Shown here in pieces: positions 2,930-61,083 of a stretch of DNA of 64,000 nucleotides. Both the position numbers and the translations under genes were made by a program. The notes below the pieces were generated by a model. The model ran no database searches. It saw only the letters and a program-made list of their open reading frames with translations, and was not told where the DNA came from. Source of the stretch: Rickettsiales bacterium (GTDB lineage: Bacteria; Pseudomonadota; Alphaproteobacteria; Rickettsiales; RI-342); NCBI GenBank assembly GCA_044368015.1, contig JBIPLF010000004.1:246-64245 (forward strand). Direction: 5' to 3'. Within the stretch, counting starts at the first letter, position 1. Each line of letters begins with the position of its first letter.

Positions 2930-4291
2930 ATGAAACGCACTCCGCTCCTCCTCTCGCTTCTGCTTCTTGGCGCTTCTCCTCTGGCGTTTGCCGCTCCGCA
3001 ATCCACTCCTGTTCCCAAGCAGGATATGGATACCTATCGCCTACTGGATCTCTTCGGCACCGTGTTTGAAGAGGTGAAGGGCGAATATGTGGAGGAAGTC
3101 ACCGATAAAAAACTGATCGAAGCCGCGCTCAACGGCATGTTGACCGAACTCGACCCGCATTCCAGCTACCTCACGGCAGATGCATTCGAGGAAATGCGCG
3201 TGCAAACCAAGGGTGAATTCGGCGGGCTGGGCATTGAAGTCACCATGGAAAACGGCCTCGTGCGCGTGGTATCCCCCATCGACGATACCCCCGCCTATAA
3301 TGCAGGGGTGCAGGCAGGCGATTACATCAGCCATATCGACGACGAACCGGTGATGGGACTCAACCTCTCCGATGCCGTCGAAAAAATGCGCGGCAAACCG
3401 GGCAGCACCATCAAGGTGACGATCCTACGCGAAGGCGCGAGCGAGCCGATCGACATCTCCATGCAGCGCGCGGTGATTACCATCAAAAGCATCCGCTCAC
3501 GCACCGAGGGCGATGTGGGGTATGTGCGCATTACCTCCTTCTCCGAACAAACCTATGACGGCATGAAAAAAGCCATTGAGGATGTGCGGAAGGAAATTGG
3601 CCCGGACATGAAAGGCATTGTGCTGGATCTGCGCAACAATCCCGGCGGCTTGCTGGATCAGGCGATTGCCGTGTCCGATGCCTTTCTGGAGCGTGGCGAG
3701 GTGGTCTCCACCCGTGGCCGCAGCCCGGAAAGCATCCGCCGTTACAATGCCAAACCGGGTGACCTGATCAATGGCTTGCCGGTGGTGGTTCTGGTGAATG
3801 GTGGTTCGGCCTCCGCATCGGAAATTGTCGCCGGAGCGTTGCAGGATCATCACCGCGCCATCGTGCTGGGTAGCAAGAGCTTCGGGAAAGGGTCCGTGCA
3901 AACCGTGATTCCGCTCGGCGAGTACGGCGCGATGCGCCTGACCACCGCCCGCTATTACACGCCTTCCGGTCGGTCGATTCAGGCGGAAGGGATCGTCCCG
4001 GATATTGATGTCGAACCCGCCAAAGTGGTGCCGGTGGAACAGGAAAACCGCAAGGAATCCGACCTGCGCGGCAGCCTCAAAAACACCGACAAGCTGCTGG
4101 AAAAAGCCGAGGAACTCCACGGCAAACCCGACCCGGCCAAAACCGATAAAGATAAAAAAGACGGGAAGGATAAATCCGACAGCAAAGCAGAGAAAGACGA
4201 TCTGAAATCGCAGGAGGACTACCAGCTGCAACGGGCGCTGGACCTCCTCCACGCCATTGATCTGTATGAGCGGTTGAGGAAACAGACATAG
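2930..4291 (+). CDS. ctpA: carboxyl-terminal processing protease (S41 family, PDZ domain)
   Basis: Signal peptide MKRTPLLLSLLLLGASPLAFA, PDZ segment, LDLRNNPGGLL and GSASASEI catalytic-region motifs. ATG 2930 preferred over GTG 2921. Confidence 0.9.
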   Translation: MKRTPLLLSLLLLGASPLAFAAPQSTPVPKQDMDTYRLLDLFGTVFEEVKGEYVEEVTDKKLIEAALNGMLTELDPHSSYLTADAFEEMRVQTKGEFGGLGIEVTMENGLVRVVSPIDDTPAYNAGVQAGDYISHIDDEPVMGLNLSDAVEKMRGKPGSTIKVTILREGASEPIDISMQRAVITIKSIRSRTEGDVGYVRITSFSEQTYDGMKKAIEDVRKEIGPDMKGIVLDLRNNPGGLLDQAIAVSDAFLERGEVVSTRGRSPESIRRYNAKPGDLINGLPVVVLVNGGSASASEIVAGALQDHHRAIVLGSKSFGKGSVQTVIPLGEYGAMRLTTARYYTPSGRSIQAEGIVPDIDVEPAKVVPVEQENRKESDLRGSLKNTDKLLEKAEELHGKPDPAKTDKDKKDGKDKSDSKAEKDDLKSQEDYQLQRALDLLHAIDLYERLRKQT

Positions 4292-4332
4292 GGAGGCCCT
4301 CGACTGCCTTTTTCTTCACCGGGAGGAAAGAA

Positions 4333-4460
4333 CCCTCTCCCTTTGGGAGAGGGCAGGGTGAGGGAAAATCTTACCCCCTCCCGGTCTCGCTGTCGCGACT
4401 CGGCGGGCTACGCTCGTCTCACGCGGCTCGCCTCCCTCCCCCGCTTCGCGGGAGAGGGGA
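4333..4460. repeat. GC-rich palindromic element, family A composite
   Basis: ccctctccctttgggagagggcagggtgaggg hairpin plus the module ccccctcccggtctcgctgtcgcg...ctacgctc...cctccctcccccgcttcgcgggagagggga. The second module recurs at 17191-17254. Confidence 0.8.
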
Positions 4461-4511
4461 AATTAGGGCGGCCATCTGTTGCGGTTTGTCTCATTACTCG
4501 GAGGGAATCCA

Positions 4512-5273
4512 ATGTGCAAAGGTATCAATTCCATGTCTAGACACACTCATCAATCCGGCTTCACCCTTGTGGAGCTTTCCATTGTTCTCGTGATCATCGG
4601 CCTGATTCTGGGTGGGGTGATGGTAGGCCGCAGCATGATCCGCTCGATGCAGGTCAACCGCGTGGCGTCCGACCTCGAGGCCTATGTGGCAGCCGCTCAG
4701 ATGTTCGTGGACAAATATCAGGGACTACCGGGGGACATCACCAACGCCACGACGTTTTGGGGAGCCACCGTAGCGAATGGGAATGGCAATGGGCAGTTGG
4801 ATGCTGCGGGCGCTGTGAGTACGGCTGGCGAGTTATTCGGTGCGTGGGAGCAGATGGCACTGGCCGGGCTGATTAAGGGTAAATATAGCGGACTTGCTGG
4901 GGCAGGAGGTGTGCAACATGCCGTGCCGGGCACCAATGCGCCGAAAGGTTCTCTCTCTGCAACGGTTTTTGCATGGCTGTACAGAGGAATGCAGTCTGCT
5001 AGTGGCAGTTATTATGATGGGTACCTTGGAAATACGATATGGTTTGGCACAGCAAATACGGCAGATGTCCCTTATACTGCTGCACTTACTCCCGGTGAAG
5101 CGTATGCTATCGACCTCAAGATAGATGATGGTGTGCCGGGTACAGGGAACCTACAAACACAATGGAATGTCAATACCTGCAACACCGGCACCGCGTCCAC
5201 TGGCCCTACCTCCACCTATCTTACCACCTCCACCGCTGTTACATGCTTCCTCATATTCAAAACCGGATTGTAA
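4512..5273 (+). CDS. prepilin-type N-terminal cleavage/methylation domain protein (type IV pilin / pseudopilin-like)
   Basis: Leader ending in Gly, then FTLVELSIVLVIIGLILGG (class III signal peptide). GGAGGG lies 7 nt upstream of ATG 4512; ATG 4533 is also possible. The 3' half is visibly AT-richer. No pil/gsp neighbours. Confidence 0.7.
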   Translation: MCKGINSMSRHTHQSGFTLVELSIVLVIIGLILGGVMVGRSMIRSMQVNRVASDLEAYVAAAQMFVDKYQGLPGDITNATTFWGATVANGNGNGQLDAAGAVSTAGELFGAWEQMALAGLIKGKYSGLAGAGGVQHAVPGTNAPKGSLSATVFAWLYRGMQSASGSYYDGYLGNTIWFGTANTADVPYTAALTPGEAYAIDLKIDDGVPGTGNLQTQWNVNTCNTGTASTGPTSTYLTTSTAVTCFLIFKTGL

Positions 5274-5285
5274 CTGCTCCTTCCT

Positions 5286-6491
5286 ATGCCTGTATCACTG
5301 AACCACCTCATTCCTCGCAATCTCCCGCTGATCCTATGGGGGGGGATGGTGCTGGCGCTGGCCAGTATTTCGCTGTTGCAGTTTCTCAAACTCTCCGACG
5401 TACGCAGCGAGGCACAAACGCTTGCGTTTGATCAGGGGCAGCGGCTGGAATTCAACCTCTCCACCGGTGAGGTGAAGGGATTGGTGGTCGCCACCACCAC
5501 CACGAAAGCGCCGGAACCCGCCAAGCCCGCCCCGGCCAAACCAGAGCATCACACGGAGGCCACGCCGCATACCGAACATGCGGAACCGGTGGCGGAAGCC
5601 CCCCCGGCCGCAGTGCAGGAGCCTCGCTATGAGCGCTACGCCCGCCCCTTTATGGGCACGGAAGGAAAACCCCGCATTGCGATTATCGTCAGCGGACTGG
5701 GACTCAGCAAACACACCACCTTGCTGGCGCTGACCCTACCGCAGGATGTCACGCTCAGTTTTTCCCCCTATGCCAGCAACCTCTCGGCCTGGATTCCGCA
5801 GGCGCGCACCGCCGGATATGAGATATTGGTGAATATCCCCTTGCAAACCGAGGGGTTTCCGCTGGACGATCCCGGCCCGCAAGCCATTCTGATGGATCAC
5901 GATACCGCACGGGTGGAAGAACGCCTCTCATGGGCAACCACGCAGGTGGCCGAAGCGGTGGGTTACCTCACCCCCGGCGACGAAGTGATTACGCAGGATG
6001 CCGGGGCGGCGAAACGTTTGCTGGAATCGGTACAGAAAGAGCAGGCGATGCTGATCGTCGGGCGTACCGAACAGCCACCGGAGGTCCGCGATCTGGTGGA
6101 GGATATGGGCGTGCACACCCTGCTTTCAGATGTGCGGCTCGACGACACTGCCTCTGCCAACGCCATCGACGCGGCGTTGCAATCGCTGGAAGCCACAGCC
6201 AAAGAGCGCGGATATGCGGTGGCGATCGCCCGCCCCTATCCGGTCACCATCGAACGCTTAAAACTCTGGCTTGCGCAACTCCCCTCGCGTGGCATAGAAC
6301 TGGCCCCAGTCAGTGCGCTTTCGATGAGTCCCGCCTCGCCAGAAGCACCCGCCAGCCCTCCTACTCCAGAGACACCGCATGTCCCAGAAGCCCCGCAATC
6401 TCCCGCCGTCCCCGCCGCGCCAGCCTCCCCTCACGCCTCCGAAGAAGCTGTACCGGCCGTGCGTGGGCATCATGCTGCTGAACACCCGTAA
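5286..6491 (+). CDS. divergent polysaccharide deacetylase family protein (YibQ-like) with N-terminal TM helix and Pro-rich linker and tail
   Basis: TM helix, Pro/Ala/Glu-rich linker, then a core with RIAIIVSGLGLS...LPQDVTLSFSPY resembling YibQ-type proteins. The Pro-rich C-terminal tail overlaps the rppH ORF. Confidence 0.7.
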   Translation: MPVSLNHLIPRNLPLILWGGMVLALASISLLQFLKLSDVRSEAQTLAFDQGQRLEFNLSTGEVKGLVVATTTTKAPEPAKPAPAKPEHHTEATPHTEHAEPVAEAPPAAVQEPRYERYARPFMGTEGKPRIAIIVSGLGLSKHTTLLALTLPQDVTLSFSPYASNLSAWIPQARTAGYEILVNIPLQTEGFPLDDPGPQAILMDHDTARVEERLSWATTQVAEAVGYLTPGDEVITQDAGAAKRLLESVQKEQAMLIVGRTEQPPEVRDLVEDMGVHTLLSDVRLDDTASANAIDAALQSLEATAKERGYAVAIARPYPVTIERLKLWLAQLPSRGIELAPVSALSMSPASPEAPASPPTPETPHVPEAPQSPAVPAAPASPHASEEAVPAVRGHHAAEHP

Positions 6492-6903
6492 CCAGATTTT
6501 CATTGCCCAGCGCCGCGATGCCTCCAGCCATGCCTGGCAGATGCCGCAGGGAGGGATCGACCATGGCGAAGAACCGCGTATGGCTGCACTCCGCGAGTTA
6601 AAAGAGGAAACCAGCATCACCGAGGTGGAAATTCTGGAAGAGCATCCGGAATGGCTCTCCTATGACCTGCCGAAAGACCTGCAACGCACCCTGTGGCGTG
6701 GGCGATTCGCCGGGCAGCGGCAACGCTGGTTTGCGCTGCGTCACCTAGGCACCGATTACGAGATTCAGATTGAGACCGCGCATCCGGAATTCCGCAACTG
6801 GCGCTGGGCGCATCCAGAGGAATTGCCGCCGCTGGCCGTGCCCTTCAAACGCGAGATTTACCGTCAGGTGGTAGAGGATTTCCGCCATTTGTGGCAAGGG
6901 TAG
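6379..6903 (+). CDS. rppH: RNA pyrophosphohydrolase (NUDIX)
   Basis: YRPCVGIMLLN start of the fold and Nudix box GGIDHGEEPRMAALRELKEETS. The 5' 113 nt overlap the preceding ORF, so the start is uncertain. Confidence 0.85.
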   Translation: MSQKPRNLPPSPPRQPPLTPPKKLYRPCVGIMLLNTRNQIFIAQRRDASSHAWQMPQGGIDHGEEPRMAALRELKEETSITEVEILEEHPEWLSYDLPKDLQRTLWRGRFAGQRQRWFALRHLGTDYEIQIETAHPEFRNWRWAHPEELPPLAVPFKREIYRQVVEDFRHLWQG

Positions 6904-17349: not shown

Positions 17350-18582
17350 TCACTGCCCTTCCATCTGCGATGCGATGTACCCACTGACGGCTGCCATGGC
17401 GTCGCACACCCGATCCAGTAGCTCAGCTTTGTGGTGGTCCGCTGCTTCCCAGGCGATTTCGGCCTGTTTGCACTGTTCGGAGAGGGCAAAGGCCCCCAGA
17501 TTAGCGCTGGCCCCTTTGAATTTATGCGCCGCCGCCTTCCATGCCGCCTGATCTCCTGTTTGCAACGCCTGACGCAGGCTTTGGATGTTGATGTCTGCCT
17601 CGGAGAGAAACAGTTCAAAAATCTCGGCCTCTGCCTCCCGGTCGCCATCGGTGAACAGCCGTAAATGCTCCATATCCACCGGAGCCGTGGAGGGTGATGC
17701 AGGGGGCAATTCCTGCGCCAAAGCTTGGGCGTTTTGCGTGGCTGGAATCCACTGATTGAGGACTCCAATGAGTGTCTCTGGCTTGACCGGCTTGGTGATA
17801 TAGTCGTCCATACCGGCGTTTAGGCAGGTCTCCCGGTCGCCGATCATGGCGTTGGCGGTCATGGCGATGATCGGTACATGGCTGGTGCCGTCCTGTTCCT
17901 GCAAACGTACGGTGTGGGTGGCGGTGTAGCCGTCCATCTCTGGCATCTGGCAATCCATCAGCACCAGATCATAGGCCTGCAAGGTTATTTTATCCAGGGC
18001 CTCCTGCCCATTTTCGGCGGTATCGACCTGTGTGATGCCCAGTTTTTTGAGTAGCTTCAACAGGAACATCAGGTTGATGGGATGGTCATCCACCGCCAGA
18101 ATCCGGGCATCGGTGCGGAAACGTGCCTCCCGCGTTTCGGTGTGCGTGCGGACAGGTGCTTCCGTTACAAAACACACCTCGCCGCTGGGAACTTCCATCG
18201 GAATGCGGAGGGTAAAACAGGAGCCCTTCCCGGCTTCGCTGGTCACGGTGATGGTACCGCGCATCAGCAGGGCCAGTTCGCGGCTGATGGCCAGCCCCAA
18301 CCCGGTACCCCCGTATTTGCGGGTGGTGGAGGCATCGGCCTGCGTGAATTTCTCGAAGATGGTATCCAGTTTGTTTTTGGGAATACCGATGCCGCTATCC
18401 CGCACATGCACCAGCATCTGGTGATCCTCGTCGGTTTCCACTTCGATCCTCACCCCGCCCTTTTCGGTGAATTTCAACGCATTGCTAATCAGGTTGCGGA
18501 TGATCTGCTGGATGCGGGTGCAGTCCCCCATCAATAGCGGCGGAAGGGCTGGGGAGAGGCTCAAATCCGCGTTGCCTGGCAA
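17350..18582 (-). CDS. hybrid sensor histidine kinase, C-terminal fragment (HATPase_c + REC + HPt)
   Basis: N-box [14 protein letters not shown]-boxes RDSGIGI / [10 protein letters not shown], receiver [11 protein letters not shown]...[13 protein letters not shown]...KP, HPt [14 protein letters not shown]. The ORF-track start is a TTG artefact, and the frame continues from 18485..19366 after a frameshift. Confidence 0.8.
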
Positions 18583-19366
18583 GCGGGTGAAACAGGCGAT
18601 GCAGCCCGTCGAAGAGATCCTGCGTGTGATACAGCGTGTGTTCCAGCGTTAATCCACCGGATTCCACTTTGGAGATATCTAAAATATCATTCAGCAATTC
18701 GAGCAGTTGTTCACCGGACTGATGAATGGTCTGGATCATCTCCTGTTGTTCGTCTGGCAGTCCTGCGTCCAGCAACAAGCGCGAAAGCCCCAGCATCCCA
18801 TTCATCGGGGTGCGGAGCTCATGGCTCATATTGGCCAGAAAACGGCTTTTAGACTCGCTGGCGCTTTCGGCTTTCTCACGCAGGGTGTTGGCTTCCAGCA
18901 GATGCTCTTCCAGTTCCAGCATCGTGGCTTCTGCCCGCATGGTGGCAAGTTTGAGCTTGCGGGTGTTGCGTTGCTGTTCGCTGATATCGCGGATCAGGGT
19001 CAGGGCACCCACCGCCGCTCCCCGCTCCAGCAGGGGGAGGATTTTATACTCAAACCAGCGATGTTCACGCTGGGCAGAGGCAGGTTTTTCAAGCGTGGCG
19101 ACGAAGGGGCGATGGGGGGGCGTGAGTAGGTCATGGGTGTCTTCCTCCAGCTTCATCAAATCGTCATTGTTCAGAATGGCAGGGTCCCACCCCTCCAGCG
19201 GCAAGGCTCGCAGCGCTTGCCCGACCACCTGTCCCGGACGTTTGGCACCGATCAGCTCCAGATACATGGCGTTGCATCCTGCCACCCGTCCGGCTGCGTC
19301 TGTCCAATAGACAGCGCTTGGCAGGGTGTTAACTATCAGGGAGAAGGTGGAATCGGAGAATGGCAT
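18485..19366 (-). CDS. hybrid sensor histidine kinase, N-terminal fragment (PAS + HisKA)
   Basis: Cytoplasmic PAS-like region and H-box [18 protein letters not shown]. The ORF runs out of frame about 100 nt before the ATPase fragment begins. Confidence 0.8.
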
Positions 19367-19579: not shown

Positions 19580-19948
19580 TCACCGGTTCAGCACATCGTC
19601 CCGCGTGGTGGCGACAATCGCAAGCGCCTCGTCGATCATCGGAGCGTCAACGCCCAATTCCTGCAACGTGGCCACCAGATGACCTGCCACACGGTCGAAA
19701 TGCACGTCGGAAAGACCGCGTTTTACCAATCCAAAATGCGCGGTGCGTAAATGCTGCCCCTCGTAATGGTGTGGCCCGCCGAACGCCATGGTGATGAAGG
19801 CCGTCTGACTGGCACGGAGCCTTGCCATATCCACATCCTCAAAGAAGGGGATGAGCAGCTCGTCCTCCAGAATTTTTTCGTAGAATCGTACCACTGTGGC
19901 TTTCACCGCGTCGCGGCCCCCTAAACGCTCGAACAAACATCCGCTCAT
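19580..19948 (-). CDS. glbN: group I truncated haemoglobin (TrHbN-like)
   Basis: 122 aa. FERLGGRDAVKATVVRFYEKILED...FF...Q..F...AFGGPHHYEG..L..AH pattern of 2-on-2 globins. Confidence 0.85.
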   Translation of the reverse strand: MSGCLFERLGGRDAVKATVVRFYEKILEDELLIPFFEDVDMARLRASQTAFITMAFGGPHHYEGQHLRTAHFGLVKRGLSDVHFDRVAGHLVATLQELGVDAPMIDEALAIVATTRDDVLNR

Positions 19949-19957
19949 TGGGTTCTC

Positions 19958-20842
19958 CTATCCGTTGTTGGCACGTTGTTTGTGCTCGGACGCACAATCG
20001 CGAATGTAATGTAAAAGCACTTCCTTACGGAATGGTTTATGGACAAATCCCCGCGCTCCGTAATCGAAAGCCGTCAGGATGTTGTCCAGATACCCGTGCG
20101 AGCTGAACATCACCACATAGGCATCCTTATCGGCGGCAAGGATACGTTGCAGCACGGCAAATCCGCTTTTGTCCGGGAGATTGATATCCAGAAACACAAT
20201 ATCCGGTGCATAGAGCAGGTAGTTGCCGATCGCATCCTGCGCGGTTTCGGCGGTCACCAGCCGGTAATCGTTTTTGAGTAATTGCCCGGCAATGCGGCGC
20301 GTTACCGGATCGTCCTCCACCAGCATCACATAGGGCGGCTGACGCGTGCCTCGTTGGGTGATGTTGGCCTCCAGAATATCGGGGATCATCTCCACCCCAT
20401 CCAGCAGGCTATCGGCCGTGTGCGGGCTGCGTGCGGCAACCGTCGATGCCTTGCCCTTGGTGGCAATGAGTGTGGCCGCCGCCTGCCATTCCTGTTGCAG
20501 CGCATAGAGTTTTCGGCTGGTGATGCACCAGTCACGCGTGCGTAGCGCATTGCCCAGCAGGGTGGAAAAATCGGCAAACACCTGCTTTTCAACATGGCGG
20601 CCCATCAGGATCACGTCACCGTCGCTGCACAGAAATCCGCAGCTATCGGTATTGTAAAACCCGACTCCAATAAGGTCCTGCAACAGCAGGTGAATCTCAT
20701 CCGGCGAGGCATGACGATCCATGTTATACGGGCGCAGGCCCACATGCTGCATGGTCCAGTTGCGCCAGGTGAGCGGATCATGCCGAATGGCCTCTGCAAT
20801 CTGGGCCAGCAATTCCGGAGCAGTTTCATAGCGTAAATACAT
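19958..20842 (-). CDS. response regulator: unassigned N-terminal domain + C-terminal receiver
   Basis: C-terminal REC (VMLVEDDPVTRR...IVFLDINLPDKSG...GARGFVHKP). The N-terminal ~150 aa have no motif I recognise. Paralogue of 20961..21839. Confidence 0.8.
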   Translation of the reverse strand: MYLRYETAPELLAQIAEAIRHDPLTWRNWTMQHVGLRPYNMDRHASPDEIHLLLQDLIGVGFYNTDSCGFLCSDGDVILMGRHVEKQVFADFSTLLGNALRTRDWCITSRKLYALQQEWQAAATLIATKGKASTVAARSPHTADSLLDGVEMIPDILEANITQRGTRQPPYVMLVEDDPVTRRIAGQLLKNDYRLVTAETAQDAIGNYLLYAPDIVFLDINLPDKSGFAVLQRILAADKDAYVVMFSSHGYLDNILTAFDYGARGFVHKPFRKEVLLHYIRDCASEHKQRANNG

Positions 20843-20890
20843 GGTATCTTCCTTCCTGTTGGCACTTTTTTATATGTGTCTTCATCTTCT

Positions 20891-20939
20891 CATCCTGAAC
20901 CCGGAGGGGTCGGAATCGCTTGCGATTCCGGGGGAGGTG
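20891..20939. repeat. short family A fragment (ggaggggtcggaatcgcttgcgattccgggggaggtg)
   Basis: Same ggtcggaatcg-N-cgattccggggg hairpin as at 17054-17080. Confidence 0.75.
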
Positions 20940-20960
20940 AACCACACAGAACCTCCTGAA

Positions 20961-21839
20961 CTATACGGTTTGTTTGGCGCGCAGATGCGGCGAACGCTGA
21001 ATGGATTCTTCCAGCTTCAGCCGGGTGAAGGGCTTGCCAACAAACCCCTTGGCCCCCATTTCCACGGCGCGCATAATGTTGGCGCGGTCGCCATTGCCAC
21101 TCAACATAACGATATAGGCATCCGGATCGATTTCGCGGAGGCGGGCAAGCAACTCAAACCCGTTGACGTCCGGCAGGTTGATATCCAGAAACAGGACATC
21201 AGGTGCCTGCGTGACATACAATGGCAGGGTGTTGTCCCCGCCATCTGAGAGTACCAACGCATAGGTTTCCGGCAGGGCTTTCCCCACCAGCTTGCGGGAG
21301 AACGCATCGTCCTCGATCACCATCACCGTGACGCGATCGCGGTTGCGGCGACGCTCGGCGAGGGTGGCAATCAATTCCGCCCGCAGGGGAGAGCGTAAAA
21401 TATCCTGTTTGCGGCGGGCACTGTTTTCCTGCGCTTTGGCGATCTGTACTTCCTGCGTCACGGCTTCCTGCGCGGCAATCTGTGCTTCGGCCAGCGCACG
21501 CAGCGGGCTGTAGCTGCGCTCAATGTCATGGAGCATGGCCAGTGAGGCAATCGGCCAGATGAGCAGATCGGAAAAACGGGCTACAATTGTTTCATAACTG
21601 CGAAAACGAATGGTTTCAGCCAGCAGGAGCACATCGCCATTGGTGAAAAAGAATGCCTGAAGCGACGGATCGTCAATCTCATTTTGCAACGCGGTAGCGA
21701 GGAGTTCCGGGGTGATGCTGTGGCGTTGATCGCAGGTTGAGAAGCGGAAATGCAGCACCCTTCCCGGTGTGCGTGCATGGTGCCAGCTATCCAGTGTCTG
21801 GCGGAAGGTACGTTCGGCATGGTCGGTGATGGTCAACAT
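20961..21839 (-). CDS. response regulator: unassigned N-terminal domain + C-terminal receiver
   Basis: C-terminal REC (VMVIEDDAFSRK...VLFLDINLPDVNG...GAKGFVGKP). N-terminal domain is paralogous to 19958..20842 and to the N-terminus of 59860..61083. Confidence 0.8.
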   Translation of the reverse strand: MLTITDHAERTFRQTLDSWHHARTPGRVLHFRFSTCDQRHSITPELLATALQNEIDDPSLQAFFFTNGDVLLLAETIRFRSYETIVARFSDLLIWPIASLAMLHDIERSYSPLRALAEAQIAAQEAVTQEVQIAKAQENSARRKQDILRSPLRAELIATLAERRRNRDRVTVMVIEDDAFSRKLVGKALPETYALVLSDGGDNTLPLYVTQAPDVLFLDINLPDVNGFELLARLREIDPDAYIVMLSGNGDRANIMRAVEMGAKGFVGKPFTRLKLEESIQRSPHLRAKQTV

Positions 21840-22034: not shown

Positions 22035-23432
22035 ATGTCCGACCGTATTCTCTTGGTGGAAGATGACCGTACCCAACGGCTGATGACGCAGCGTTTGTGC
22101 GAGAAGCTGATGGGGTGCACGGTGCTGACCGCGTCGCATGGGTTGGAGGCGATCGGCACGCTGGAGATGGAAGAAGATATTGCTCTCGTCCTCATGGATG
22201 TGCAGATGCCGGTGATGGATGGGCTGACGGCGCTCAAAAAAATCCGTGCCCGCCATGCGGAACTGCCGGTAATCATGCTCACTGGCTCCAGCCAGCCGGA
22301 CGATATCGTCGCCGCGATGCGGGCGGGCGCGACGGATTTCCTCCCCAAACCGGCGGATCCGGAGCGGTTGCGGGTTTCCATTCAGAACGCATTGCGGTTG
22401 CAGGCGCTCGCCCGCGAGGTAGCGCGGCTCAGTCGCGGACAAGGAGAGGCGATTGGCTTCCGCGACCTCATCGGGCATGACAAGGGACTCGCCGACATCA
22501 CCCGCATGGGACGCAAAGCGGCGTTTGCATCCATCCCGGTGCTCATCAGTGGCGAAACCGGTACGGGGAAGGAGATGGTCGCCCGCGCCATCCATGGCGA
22601 AAGCCCCCGCGCTCGCGGGCCGTTTGTGGCGGTGAATTGCGGGGCGATCCCGGAAAAACTGGTGGAAAGCACCCTGTTTGGCCATGAAAAAGGCGCCTTT
22701 ACCGGAGCGATTGCCAAGGCGCTCGGTAAATTCCGCGAGGCCGATGGCGGAACGATCTTCCTCGACGAGGTAGGCGAGCTGCCGCCGGAAGCGCAGGTGA
22801 AACTGCTGCGCGTGCTTCAACAACACGAGGTGGAGCCGGTGGGGGCCGGGCGCACGGTGCCGGTCAATATCCGGGTGATTTCCGCCACCCATCGCGACCT
22901 GCGCGAGGATGTCGCATCCGGGCGCTTCCGCGAGGATCTCTATTTCCGGCTGCATGTGCTGTCGCTCGCCATGCCGCCGCTGCGCGAGCGGGCGGAGGAT
23001 ATTCCCCCACTGGCCAGCCATTTGCTGGACCGCTTTGCCACCAGCGATCGGCTACCCTTCAAACGCCTGTCACCGGAAGCGAAAGCATTACTGCAACGCT
23101 ATGACTGGCCGGGCAATGTGCGCGAACTGGCCAACACCCTGCACCGGGCGCTGGTACTCTCCGAACATGAGGTGCTGGAAGCCACCGATTTCCCCGAATG
23201 CCACCGCACCCCCTCACGGATGGAATCTCTGCCTGCCCTATCCGGGGGAGCATCCCCCTCCACTCCCCTGTTCCTCAATGCCGATGGCACGCTGAAACCC
23301 TTGCGCCAACTGGAGGAAGAAGCGATCCGCTTTGCCCTCTCCCACACCAAGCAGAACGCCACACAGGCCGCCGCTGCGCTGGGTATCGCCAAATCCACGC
23401 TGTATCGGCATTGGGGGAAAGAGACACTGTGA
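22035..23432 (+). CDS. sigma-54-dependent response regulator (NtrC family: REC + AAA+ + Fis-type HTH)
   Basis: REC (ILLVEDD...[13 protein letters not shown]...KP), Walker A GETGTGKE, intact GAFTGA, C-terminal [19 protein letters not shown]. Confidence 0.9.
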
Positions 23433-56916: not shown

Positions 56917-59865
56917 CTATTGCAGCAACCGCTGGGCCGAACGCTGAGAAATGGCTTCTTCCAAATCCCTTGTATCCAGACTCTTTTTCGGTTCGGAAAT
57001 ATCACCAGAGAGATTAAGCGAAAAAGGCGGTAACTCCGTGCGCTCATTCACAAGAATAGGATAGGTTGTTTGGACATTAAGCATCCAGCGTTTCAGGTCC
57101 AGAGTCGCCTGCATGGTTGCCTGCCCACTATCAGTATCCAGCAACAGGCGTGGAATCTGCATCACTCCGCCACGGATATAGCCATTACCGGTGATGTGCG
57201 GATAATGAGTATTGGAGCGCTCACTCAAGCTTAAGCGCCGCATATTCTGCAAATCTTCAAGGCTTCGAATATGTGCCAGCTTGCTGACGAATAATTGATG
57301 GCTGAAACCGGGAATGCGCACATCCCGCAAGGAGGCGTTGACGCTGCTTTCCAGCCCTCCGATCAGGGACTCAAAACTGATGCCGGAACTGCGAACGGTT
57401 CCGGCAAAACTGGCAAGCCCGGCAATCCGATCCTCTTCTGACGCGGGTAGCACAGGCTTACGCGCCATGAAATTGATGCTGTCCTGCAAAGCAGCCGCTC
57501 CTTTGGCAAGGTCTATCTGTTCCAGCAGGAACGATAAACTAAATTCCGGAATACGCCCACCAGTAAAATTTCCGGAGCATTTAAGGGTGCCGCCCAGCCC
57601 GGCCCCTTCAAGCGAGCGGATGTTCAGTGTATTCGCCGCCAGATCTCCTTGCAGACGCACATTGGTAAGGGGATGGTTTGGATGTTCCAAGATTCCAGCA
57701 GAGAGATCCAGTTTGCCATCCAGCACCGTCAGAATGCTGGTGTCGATACTGTCCTGCCGCCAGATATGGGCAAGGGTTGGTGCGAGCGATTCCACCGGCA
57801 ACTCTTTACGTTTAGCGTCAGGCAGGGCAGGCAATAACAATGACAAATCCATGCGGTTGGTGACCAGCTTTGCCGTCACAAACGGACGTTTCTCCGTCGC
57901 CTTCAGATCAATATCTCCATATAGTTGGGCACCATGCATGTTGGTGTATAGCTTATTGATCTGCAACGATCCGGGCTGCATGGAGATCTCCATCTGGGGA
58001 TCCTCCAGCGCAAATTCCTGATAATAGAGGTGATTCGCCCGCATCCGAAGATCCATCGAAAACGGCAAATGGTGCAACCATTCCAGACTGATCGGGCGAT
58101 ATTTCGCACTCAAAAAGCTCTGCTCTTCGGGAGCCAGCTCCAGCGACTTAAAAATCATTTGATTGGTCAGGTACTGGTCTGCCCGCCATTCATCCACACT
58201 GATAGTAGCGCGGATGCGAGGCAGGCTACGAGTCTCTGCTTTTGCCTGCTCCTCCTTGGAGTCCAGCAGAAGCGCTAATTCTTCCTGCCCTTTCTGGGTT
58301 CTTTTTTCTTTTTCGAGATCCGCCGGAAAACGTATCTGCAACGCGCCTGCGGCACGGGTCCCGTCCATCTCAAGCGTGGTATCGTTTAAACGTAACTCAC
58401 TCAGAGAGAGCAGCATACCGCCTTTTAGGTGATACGGCCCAAACCGCTCTTTATTCACCACGGGGATGTCCCAACCAAGCCAGGGGAAAAGTGCTCTGGC
58501 ACTACTGCCATCCAGTTCCATTTGCCCTTCAAACATCGGGCCATCAATCTGTTGGTTGACGATCCCAAAAATGGTCAAATGGCTTTTGCCCGGCAGTTCG
58601 GCAGAAGCCTGATGCAACACGACTTCACCGTCCACCAACTCAGAATGCAGCACCAGCTTGGTTGCCACATCATTCTTGTAACGCAGGGACTCAAACCCCA
58701 GCTTTAAGAATAAATCAAATGCCCCCGGAATGTGCAGCACGGCATCACGGGCATCGGTTACCACCAGCGGCACAGCCCAGCTATCGCGAATTTTTTCTTC
58801 TGCGGGTGGTGTGCGTTCCAGAAACTGGAAGAATTGATCCAGATTCACCTTGGCGTCTGCAAACTGCACCGAAAATTCTGGAACGGCTTTCAGATCAGCA
58901 TGAATACTCCCCTTGCCCTGATAAATATCCGAACGGATGTCGACATCGGAAAGACGTAACTTCTCCCCCTGCCCCACCACCTGCGCAATGAGAGCGAACG
59001 CACTGGCAGCGCTTGGTTGATACCCCTGTTTAACGCGAAGTTTGCTGGTTAGCTCCGTCACAAAACGGGGAAAATCGCTACTCTCAAAGCCAAGCTCTCC
59101 CTTTACAGAGTCACGCTTTTGCAACCCTCCCCACGCTCCGGCGAAATGCAGCTTACCAGATGGCGAGGAAAGAGAAGTCTGGACATCCCATCCTCCATCG
59201 GAAGCTTTGGTTGCGCTATGGCGCCAGACCAGTTGCAGATGATTGGCAATCTGAAATGAAAGGTCCGTGCTCAGGCTGTCCGCTGCGAGGGCGATCTCTC
59301 CCTCTACTTTGGTAGCGGAAGCCTGCCATTTGGCAAAGCGGTCCACATAATGTATAGCCCCATTATGGAGAGTTAACGGCACGGCATGCGAGGCCATGAA
59401 TGTCGCAGACCCTATACCGGTAGAGGCATCAGATGGGCCGTCCCAGTTGAAACGCTTATCCTCCGAACGCTCAAGCATCAAAACAGGGCGCTGCAACTCA
59501 ATGGCACTTGGCTTCGGATTGCCAGACAAAACCCCAAGCCACCCAAGGCGTATGCGCATTTCCTCGGCAGTGAGCATGTGATGCCGCTCACTCCAAGGCG
59601 CATTCGCTACACTGACCCCCTGAACCCGGACTTCAGGAAAGGGAAAGAAATGACTGGAAATCGCCCCGTCAATCCGGATGTCGCGCCCGGTTGAACTTTT
59701 AAACAGGCGGATGATATCTTCCTTTTTACCTTCGATATCCAGAACCATCGGCATCACAACAGGAACGGCGCACAGCAACAGGCCAACTCCGGCAAGCCAT
59801 GCAAGACGACGTTTCAAACGGTTCCATTGTGCAGAAATGATTGATCTCATGCGAGGTGTATGCAT
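56917..59865 (-). CDS. asmA: AsmA family outer-membrane biogenesis protein
   Basis: 982 aa. N-terminal TM anchor and AsmA-like start (GRDIRIDGAISSHFFPFPEVRVQGVSVAN), then a long beta-rich repetitive body. AT-richer than the window average. Confidence 0.7.
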   Translation of the reverse strand: MHTPRMRSIISAQWNRLKRRLAWLAGVGLLLCAVPVVMPMVLDIEGKKEDIIRLFKSSTGRDIRIDGAISSHFFPFPEVRVQGVSVANAPWSERHHMLTAEEMRIRLGWLGVLSGNPKPSAIELQRPVLMLERSEDKRFNWDGPSDASTGIGSATFMASHAVPLTLHNGAIHYVDRFAKWQASATKVEGEIALAADSLSTDLSFQIANHLQLVWRHSATKASDGGWDVQTSLSSPSGKLHFAGAWGGLQKRDSVKGELGFESSDFPRFVTELTSKLRVKQGYQPSAASAFALIAQVVGQGEKLRLSDVDIRSDIYQGKGSIHADLKAVPEFSVQFADAKVNLDQFFQFLERTPPAEEKIRDSWAVPLVVTDARDAVLHIPGAFDLFLKLGFESLRYKNDVATKLVLHSELVDGEVVLHQASAELPGKSHLTIFGIVNQQIDGPMFEGQMELDGSSARALFPWLGWDIPVVNKERFGPYHLKGGMLLSLSELRLNDTTLEMDGTRAAGALQIRFPADLEKEKRTQKGQEELALLLDSKEEQAKAETRSLPRIRATISVDEWRADQYLTNQMIFKSLELAPEEQSFLSAKYRPISLEWLHHLPFSMDLRMRANHLYYQEFALEDPQMEISMQPGSLQINKLYTNMHGAQLYGDIDLKATEKRPFVTAKLVTNRMDLSLLLPALPDAKRKELPVESLAPTLAHIWRQDSIDTSILTVLDGKLDLSAGILEHPNHPLTNVRLQGDLAANTLNIRSLEGAGLGGTLKCSGNFTGGRIPEFSLSFLLEQIDLAKGAAALQDSINFMARKPVLPASEEDRIAGLASFAGTVRSSGISFESLIGGLESSVNASLRDVRIPGFSHQLFVSKLAHIRSLEDLQNMRRLSLSERSNTHYPHITGNGYIRGGVMQIPRLLLDTDSGQATMQATLDLKRWMLNVQTTYPILVNERTELPPFSLNLSGDISEPKKSLDTRDLEEAISQRSAQRLLQ

Positions 59866-61083
59866 ACAGTATCATACATGCAGACGATACTGAAAAAAGC
59901 AGATTTGAAGCTGGTAGAACGCCTTTCCGATCTAGAGGAGAGTCCGGCTGGGTGGCGTTTGCTCTATTTCCCATTCAGCAAACTGCTGGAGCATCACCGC
60001 ACCCACTACCAGACCACCATTGCCATCAATCTGGTGTATGACTACCTAAAAGAGGCGGAAGGCTATGTGTTGCTCTTCCCCAACGACGACCTCTATATTC
60101 TCTGCAAAGCCGTTGCACACACGCTGATTGATAAGCTCATCTTCAGGATGCGCTACCTGTTTGCCGATGACCCTCTGGCGTACGATCAGGCGGGCAAGGA
60201 GATTCCGGAATTTTGTACGCAACATGATCTGAGCGTGGCTTGGAGCAGTTGTTATGAGGAGGCCAAAAACCACATTGCATCCCCTGCGATGGTGCGCAAA
60301 CCAAGCATGGTAGAAGAACCAAGTAGCACATTACACCCTCTGACTCCAGCACGTCTGGCATCGCTGGAAAAGGAGCTGGAATTCGCCGACCTGAGCCGTG
60401 TGATCCGCAAGCAGCCCATCTGCGCTATACGCCCTGGCAAAGACCCGGTTTCAGTTTTTGATGAACTCTATATGCATATCCCGCATCTGCGACGTCTGGT
60501 GATGGAACAGGTGGATTTCACCAGTAACCGCTGGCTTTTCCGCTATGTCACACAACTGCTGGACATCAAAGTGCTGGATATGTTGGCACGCCGCACCAAG
60601 CACATGATTCAGCGTCCCATCAGCCTCAATCTCAACATCGAGTCGGTGCTGGAAACAGCCTTTGCTCAGTTTGACCTCGCCGTGCCAAAGAGTATGAAAG
60701 CCTCCATCCTGTTCGAGATTCAGCTCGGCGATGTCTTCGCCGATATGCAGGGGTTTTTTACCGCCCGCGACCATCTGCAAAAGCAGGGCTACAAAGTGTG
60801 TATTGATGGGGTTAACTCTTCCAGCTTCCCGCATATCGATCGGCAAAGCCTGGGTTTTGATCTCGTGAAAATTCAATGGAATGCCGATGCCGCACGCGAC
60901 CTGAAAGAAGAACGCAATCAGGAACTCAAAGCTGCGGTCGAACGATGTGGCGCAAACCGCGTGATTCTGTGCCGCTGCGATACCAAAGCGGCCATCGCCT
61001 ATGGCCATGCCCTTAAGATTTACCTCTTTCAGGGACGCTATCTGGATGGCATCCTCAACCCCAACGCCAAAGTGGCGAATTAG
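59860..61083 (+). CDS. unassigned N-terminal domain fused to a degenerate EAL-like domain
   Basis: From about residue 180 the EAL fold pattern appears: KQPICAIRPGK..VSVFDELYMHI (EAL replaced by DEL), ISLNLN, ILFEIQ, KVCIDGV (DDFG lost), VKIQW, RVILCRCD (EGVE lost), LFQGRY. The N-terminus is paralogous to the REC proteins at 19958-21839. Confidence 0.5.
   Translation: MHTVSYMQTILKKADLKLVERLSDLEESPAGWRLLYFPFSKLLEHHRTHYQTTIAINLVYDYLKEAEGYVLLFPNDDLYILCKAVAHTLIDKLIFRMRYLFADDPLAYDQAGKEIPEFCTQHDLSVAWSSCYEEAKNHIASPAMVRKPSMVEEPSSTLHPLTPARLASLEKELEFADLSRVIRKQPICAIRPGKDPVSVFDELYMHIPHLRRLVMEQVDFTSNRWLFRYVTQLLDIKVLDMLARRTKHMIQRPISLNLNIESVLETAFAQFDLAVPKSMKASILFEIQLGDVFADMQGFFTARDHLQKQGYKVCIDGVNSSSFPHIDRQSLGFDLVKIQWNADAARDLKEERNQELKAAVERCGANRVILCRCDTKAAIAYGHALKIYLFQGRYLDGILNPNAKVAN

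Follow-up and report, generated by a model that had tools for sequence, protein, structure and literature searches.

The stretch of DNA analyzed here, referred to below as the window, covers 64,000 nt from a Rickettsiales bacterium (RI-342; assembly GCA_044368015.1, contig JBIPLF010000004.1, positions 246 to 64,245, forward strand). We focused on three of its proteins. Two are encoded by adjoining genes on the minus strand, protein A (positions 19958-20842, 294 aa) and protein B (positions 20961-21839, 292 aa), and the third, protein C, is encoded on the plus strand by an open reading frame (ORF) of 407 aa (positions 59860-61083). An earlier note, made from the sequence of the window, had proposed that a single module lies at the N termini of all three proteins, fused twice to a receiver (REC) domain and once to a degenerate EAL-like domain. 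The note further suggested that this module might be an output or partner-binding domain, controlled by phosphorylation in A and B or by cyclic di-GMP in C, whose EAL-like domain it took to be probably noncatalytic and able to bind this nucleotide. When the proteins were searched against Pfam and NCBIfam, the REC domain at residues 172 to 280 was the only domain recognized in A (PF00072, E = 5e-22; positions 20003..20329, minus strand) and in B (PF00072, E = 2.8e-21; positions 21000..21326, minus strand). For C, the only match was to EAL, at residues 236 to 395 and below the threshold (26.1 bits against a cutoff of 31.3). The first 130 to 170 residues of A, B, and C received no Pfam or NCBIfam assignment. 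The true start of C is probably M7 (position 59878) rather than position 59860, because the family consensus, the register of the hhalign alignment, and the 401-aa gene call P0001 all begin there. In the 407-aa reading, the start of C overlaps the start of a divergent AsmA-family gene (positions 56917-59865, minus strand).

Pairwise BLASTP comparisons among the N termini of A, B, and C gave no significant match, in keeping with the weak residue-level similarity that the earlier note had described. At full length, A and B matched each other (E = 6e-32), with about 50% identity in REC; this alignment reached into the N-terminal domain and aligned a G-D-V hairpin. We then used a profile hidden Markov model (HMM) built from residues 1 to 150 of 120 C-family proteins. 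The window contains 247 six-frame ORFs of 100 aa or more, and A and B ranked second and third among them, behind C itself. The score of A (11.5 bits) was matched by none of 2,000 shuffled sequences, and that of B (7.8 bits) was matched by one of 2,000. The same HMM matched 55 A- or B-type ORFs of other genomes at an E value of <1e-3 (797 ORFs scanned), the best matches outside the window being those of loci L028 (1.7e-20) and L036 (3.5e-16). Nearly all of these matches began at the first position of the profile, at the N-terminal end of the ORF. In profile-profile comparisons with hhalign, each spanning 123 to 125 columns, the probability was 98.9% for A type versus C type (E = 1.7e-17), 99.4% for B type versus C type (E = 2.8e-21), and 99.0% for A type versus B type (E = 6e-18). 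Apart from the nonsignificant BLASTP results, nothing spoke for a chance likeness between unrelated sequences; the shuffling and rank tests, the ortholog matches down to 1e-20, and the hhalign probabilities of 99% refute it, and we give this explanation practically no credence. Because the HMM ranks and shuffles, the ortholog matches, and hhalign all agreed, the shared N-terminal pattern was confirmed: A, B, and C carry one homologous N-terminal domain of about 125 to 135 residues. The profile comparisons likewise upheld the proposal that this module is joined to REC in two proteins and to a degenerate EAL-like domain in the third.

The domain extends from residue 1 to about residue 130 in A (positions 20453..20842, minus strand) and from residue 1 to about residue 125 in B (positions 21465..21839, minus strand), as delimited by the C-family HMM and hhalign. 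In C, it was delimited with the help of a structural model and Foldseek (see below) at residues 7 to 140 of the 407-aa ORF (positions 59878..60279, plus strand). It starts at the initiator methionine in all three proteins, which for C implies a start at M7. In A, a linker that is poorly conserved in the A-type alignment (residues 131 to 171 approximately; positions 20330..20452, minus strand) separates the end of the domain in hhalign from the start of the Pfam REC match at residue 172. The motif blocks on which the module had been proposed were largely recovered: the x-D-G-D hairpin, the helix that follows it, and the final Y-D-L...W segment aligned as suggested. The first strand of A did not, since the profiles placed it 3 residues further on, with W29 rather than W26 opposite W32 of C. 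The cysteines of strand 1 (W-R-C) and strand 2 (C-x-D-G-D) are conserved in 85 to 91% of the A-type or B-type orthologs; they are replaced in B of the window (V28 and F65) and partly so in A (M31, with C72 kept).

Word-indexed homolog searches with the N termini of A and B returned only self-matches. An exhaustive phmmer search with residues 1 to 130 of B against 1.84 billion representative sequences found B, its ortholog P0125 (E = 2.7e-5), one repeat protein, and nothing else. In P0124, a protein of 2,120 aa with near-identical repeats of about 115 residues, eight stretches matched the N terminus of B (E = 3e-10), and we judged this to be a repeat or composition artifact. A fourth copy of the domain in the window was also rejected, the next-best ORF with the merged-family HMM having an E value of 0.17. 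Searches of Pfam with A, B, and C and with 46 members of the domain family yielded no recurrent family, and sequence-profile searches of the PDB, whether started from the whole C family or from the merged domain family, returned nothing, not even EAL or GGDEF chains. Literature searches retrieved nothing on this domain family.

We next turned to structure prediction. AlphaFold2 models of C, made with the 120-sequence alignment, had a predicted local distance difference test score of 92.5 for the full-length protein and 94.5 for the N-terminal domain (residues 1 to 142). The first half of the domain is modeled as a strand (residues 7 to 10), a helix (14 to 24), a strand (32 to 37), short helical turns, and a helix (49 to 63); the second half is modeled as a strand (67 to 72), a hairpin, a strand (78 to 83), a helix (87 to 100), an irregular stretch, a strand (120 to 123), and a helix (124 to 140). 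The order of elements is thus beta-alpha-beta-alpha-beta-beta-alpha-beta-alpha. By our own reading against published PleD-type structures, it appears to be the GGDEF order alpha0-beta1-alpha1/alpha2-beta2-beta3-alpha3-(beta4)-beta5-alpha4 with a shortened beta4/beta5 region. When the PDB was searched with the domain model by Foldseek, about 46 of the top 50 matches, counted by hand, were GGDEF-domain proteins, with probabilities of 0.85 to 0.97. They included a Thermotoga maritima protein, DosC, Dcsbis, SiaD, LapD, PelD, WspR, PleD, DgcZ, and also DgcR. The model of full-length C aligned with the tandems of LapD, PA0861, MorA, PA0575, and FimX over 416 to 457 columns (E = 1e-13 to 1e-11), and EAL-only chains aligned with it over about 255 columns (E of about 1e-9). 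The tandems thus outscored the EAL-only chains, which indicates that the N-terminal domain adds to the match at the position of GGDEF. At the level of predicted folds only, C has the order of GGDEF-EAL tandems, in which a GGDEF fold lies directly N-terminal of an EAL fold. The shared domain is therefore probably a GGDEF-like fold, to judge from these models, and probably a far-diverged, dead GGDEF domain, although no sequence comparison places it in the GGDEF family. The earlier note had recognized no described family in these N termini. This held for Pfam, NCBIfam, and the PDB profile searches; it did not hold for AlphaFold2 and Foldseek, which retrieved GGDEF domains almost exclusively. A match to a characterized family, which the earlier note had named as a finding that would count against its module, was obtained at the fold level only, with no sequence link to GGDEF.

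The residues expected of a diguanylate cyclase were absent. The hairpin reads P-N-D-D in C, S-D-G-D in A, and T-N-G-D in B, with the consensus C-x-D-x-D-I. The family consensus contains neither GG[DE]EF nor a D-x-D in beta1 (beta1 being W-R-x-x-H/Y-F, with no aspartates), and the guanine-binding N/D and the metal-binding D of beta1/alpha1 are missing from it. No RxxD I-site motif was visible upstream of the hairpin in the domain family of A, B, and C. We infer that the domain is catalytically dead, with no cyclase activity expected; since the GGDEF signature and the metal-binding residues are absent, its role would be nonenzymatic. A motif search for genuine GGDEF proteins in the window and in related loci found none.

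Protein C belongs to a large and well-conserved family of 539 clusters, mostly from alphaproteobacterial metagenome-assembled genomes (MAGs), and its nearest relative is 50% identical. Its degenerate EAL-like domain (residues 160 to 400 approximately; positions 60337..61059, plus strand) was recognized by the sub-threshold Pfam match, by Foldseek, in which it matched the EAL domains of FimX, LapD, and MorA (E of about 1e-8 to 1e-9), and by hhalign against a canonical EAL profile, the last being a weak match (62%, E = 7.4e-5). This profile and a GGDEF counterpart were small ones that we built from PDB alignments. According to the hhalign alignment, C keeps N257, E286, D316, K337, and Q391 at canonical EAL positions and lacks the second glutamate of ExxE, the second aspartate of DDFG, and the glutamate of EGVE. 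Reading the motifs in the invariant columns, we found that Q185-P186 and E202 (the E of EAL) are retained and that the R of EALxR is missing. A competent phosphodiesterase would be expected to reach the Pfam gathering score and to have the full catalytic set, and C showed neither. The missing catalytic residues bear out the proposed degeneracy of this domain, and, going by what is known of EAL enzymes, a domain with this pattern is expected to hydrolyze poorly or not at all. Helix 3 of the C-type domain is followed by a segment that hardly varies, F-Q-L-R-Y-L-F-x-D-D-P-L-A-Y ... G-x-E-N ... F (residues 95 to 118 approximately; window positions 60142-60213 approximately). The A-type and B-type domains contain nothing equivalent, and the segment is probably a functional surface specific to C. 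The AsmA-family gene adjoins the C-family gene not only in the window, where the two are divergent, but also in two of the three other genomes inspected (L082, positions 3170-5974, and L083, positions 3026-5914), where it is codirectional with the C-family gene and followed by a prepilin-peptidase-like gene.

As predicted by these models, C is a soluble, sensor-less, strongly degenerate tandem of the GGDEF-EAL type. The pairing with EAL would follow the classical GGDEF-EAL plan, here very degenerate, because the N-terminal domain model and the full-length model match GGDEF domains and GGDEF-EAL tandems, respectively. The same two-domain order is found in LapD (Pseudomonas fluorescens and Vibrio cholerae), FimX (Pseudomonas aeruginosa and Xanthomonas), and CsrD (Escherichia coli), and in C, as in these proteins, both halves lack catalytic signatures. 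CsrD was the best NCBIfam match of C, at an insignificant score. Unlike these proteins, C lacks an input region of any kind (transmembrane, HAMP, PAS, or REC), its GGDEF-like domain beginning at the initiator methionine, and its GGDEF-like half is shorter (about 135 aa) and undetectable by sequence. We know of no counterpart of the invariant segment of C in LapD, FimX, or CsrD.

The receivers of A and B appeared intact. All 34 A-type sequences have D177, D178, D219, S247, and K269, and 33 of them have E176; in B-type sequences, E176, D177, D178, and D219 are invariant, and S247 and K269 are each found in 43 of 44. Both proteins therefore have a Pfam REC match together with the acid pocket, the phospho-acceptor D, the S/T, and the K of a phosphorylatable receiver. 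The two proteins are paralogs, response regulators in which the domains follow an unusual order: a GGDEF-like domain, a helical linker, and a C-terminal REC. A receiver and a GGDEF-fold domain are also joined in one polypeptide in PleD, WspR, DgcR, and PopA, and the structures of the first three are among the Foldseek neighbors of the shared domain. In contrast to these regulators, A and B have the inverted order, REC being at the C terminus and the GGDEF-like domain at the N terminus; they lack GG[DE]EF and a recognizable I-site, and they occur as a fixed paralog pair. Three features of this system are unusual: the inverted order, the fixed pair, and a sequence that has lost all resemblance to GGDEF.

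The genes of A and B lie in a signaling cluster. On the minus strand, the order in the window is B, A, a truncated (bacterial-like) globin gene directly downstream of A (positions 19580..19948; Pfam Bac_globin, E = 2.4e-20), and a hybrid histidine kinase gene with the Pfam domains PAS-HisKA-HATPase-REC-Hpt (positions 17350..19366). Divergent from B, on the plus strand, is a gene for an NtrC-type sigma-54 activator with a REC-AAA+-HTH architecture (positions 22035..23432; Pfam Sigma54_activat, E = 3.2e-68, REC, and HTH_8). The kinase reads as two overlapping ORFs, PAS-HisKA at positions 18485-19366 and HATPase-REC-Hpt at positions 17350-18582, and the source contig likewise has two gene calls. 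A single kinase ortholog of 670 aa (locus L001) aligned with this region in two frames, with a switch at about positions 18506-18552 and a C5 run in the overlap; the split is due either to an error in the assembly or to a genuine frameshift. We scanned species-representative genomes with conserved peptides of the A and B REC domains, which gave 79 loci, about 45 of them with full-length A-type or B-type genes. The order of activator, B, A, and kinase recurred in more than 40 species-level MAGs labeled Rickettsiales, Micavibrio, Rhodospirillales, or Alphaproteobacteria. In most related loci, the activator gene kept its divergent position and the kinase gene was downstream of the A and B genes or of a single-copy gene. 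The globin gene was recurrent, lying beside the activator in some loci and between A and the kinase in others (loci L001, L004, L007, L009-L012, L020, L036, L040, and L042), and its membership in the cluster hints at an O2, NO, or redox input. The B-then-A tandem was nearly universal among the related genomes recovered, the two genes often abutting or overlapping. The single-copy GGDEF-like/REC genes of loci L028 (positions 5980-6840) and L036 (positions 5641-6714) are equidistant from A and B (about 107 to 120 bits each), and their match to the C-type domain is much the strongest of all. These genes may be an unduplicated version of the pair.

As a whole, these data are best explained by a diverged, dead GGDEF-like domain, with C as a degenerate tandem and A and B as paired regulators in a phosphorelay cluster, and we consider this explanation likely. 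Several results weigh against it. The Foldseek scores of the N-terminal domain were weak, with template-modeling (TM) scores of 0.40 to 0.47, a root mean square deviation of about 8 Å, and a best E value of 6e-3. The GGDEF assignment comes from predicted structures alone, and the fold of the A and B domains is deduced from their homology to C. The Pfam GGDEF model (PF00990) had no match at an E value of ≤1 in A, B, and C or at an E value of ≤10 in the 46 family members; hhalign of the domain family against the small canonical GGDEF profile gave a probability of <1%; and the GGDEF-HMM scores of 198 family domains were no better than those of shuffled sequences. GGDEF_2 (PF17853), another sequence-divergent, noncatalytic GGDEF-like family, known from PucR/CdaR-type regulators, was the sole Pfam model to pick up more than a single member of the family, and these 2 of 46 matches were not significant (E = 0.22) and do not support membership. 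Finally, C is unlinked: in the window it lies about 38 kb from the A/B cluster, and none of the related A/B loci had a detectable C-type ORF in its flanks (about 6 kb). The absence of any link to GGDEF in profile-profile, HMM, and Pfam comparisons, the TM scores below 0.5 with E values of 6e-3 or weaker, and a length about 25 to 30 residues short of a canonical GGDEF domain (about 155 to 165 residues) would all fit a new family built on a generic ferredoxin-like beta-alpha-beta-beta-alpha-beta core, whose likeness to GGDEF is convergent or superficial and which has no evolutionary link to diguanylate cyclases. However, ferredoxin-like folds are abundant in the PDB, and yet nearly all of the top 50 matches were GGDEF domains; the matches also covered the additional helix at the N terminus and the two helices that precede beta2; and in C the domain occupies the exact place of GGDEF in GGDEF-EAL tandems, with the whole protein aligning. 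We therefore regard a new family as unlikely.

Given a GGDEF-like fold, what the domain does could still be read in more than one way. It might bind a nucleotide, such as cyclic di-GMP (c-di-GMP), GTP, or another, so that A and B would integrate phosphorylation with nucleotide binding and C would act as an allosteric sensor. The degenerate GGDEF domains of PelD, PopA, and Caulobacter PdeA are presumably precedents for such binding, and PelD and LapD were among the structural neighbors. Where GGDEF domains have their hairpin, this family has an acidic one, C-x-D-G-D-I, whose two aspartates are well conserved, both in 95% of the B-type sequences and the first in 92% of the C-type sequences. PelD, of which chains 4etz, 4eu0, and 4dn0 were matched, is like the shared domain a noncatalytic GGDEF fold, and it binds c-di-GMP at a retained RxxD I-site. 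It is this motif that is not visible in the domain family of A, B, and C; the consensus also lacks the guanine- and metal-binding residues, and the conserved residues differ widely among the A, B, and C types, which argues against a common ligand pocket. A retained nucleotide-binding function is thus, in our view, quite improbable. Those differing residue sets would, as far as A and B are concerned, be expected of complementary surfaces, and most of the related genomes recovered keep the B-then-A tandem. Catalytically active GGDEF domains function as dimers. A and B could accordingly form an obligate heterodimer through their GGDEF-like domains, the domain being mainly a dimerization module rather than an output onto a third protein. 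The existence of the single-copy forms in L028 and L036 speaks against an obligate pair, and we hold this arrangement to be somewhat unlikely.

With the shared domain taken as a dead GGDEF-like module, the system could work as follows. The kinase would sense a PAS- or globin-linked signal, and its REC-Hpt relay would carry phosphate to A and B, whose receivers are intact, and probably also to the sigma-54 activator. Phosphorylation of A and B would alter, through the linker, the pairing or docking of the GGDEF-like domain, which would act as a nonenzymatic interaction or output module. In C, the GGDEF-like domain might be a regulatory or scaffolding partner of the EAL-like domain, as in LapD and FimX. 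A further step, which we consider very doubtful, is that phosphorylated A, B, or both attach to the unlinked C, GGDEF-like domain to GGDEF-like domain. If this were true, a phosphorelay sensing through globin and PAS would control an EAL-like c-di-GMP effector in trans, and a domain family unrecognized by the databases would form a direct bridge, at the protein level, from two-component to c-di-GMP signaling.

What is known of c-di-GMP and two-component signaling is not overturned by these results. If the assignment is right, they would add to the GGDEF-like superfamily a branch that is an orphan by sequence. About 540 C-type clusters, together with the A/B pairs of more than 40 alphaproteobacterial species labeled Micavibrio or Rickettsiales, now carry no annotation beyond "CheY," "EAL domain protein," or "hypothetical," and a Pfam-style model made from these alignments would reannotate the A-, B-, and C-type proteins. 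The A/B pair beside a globin and a hybrid kinase would provide a defined, testable system for dead GGDEF domains as outputs of response regulators.

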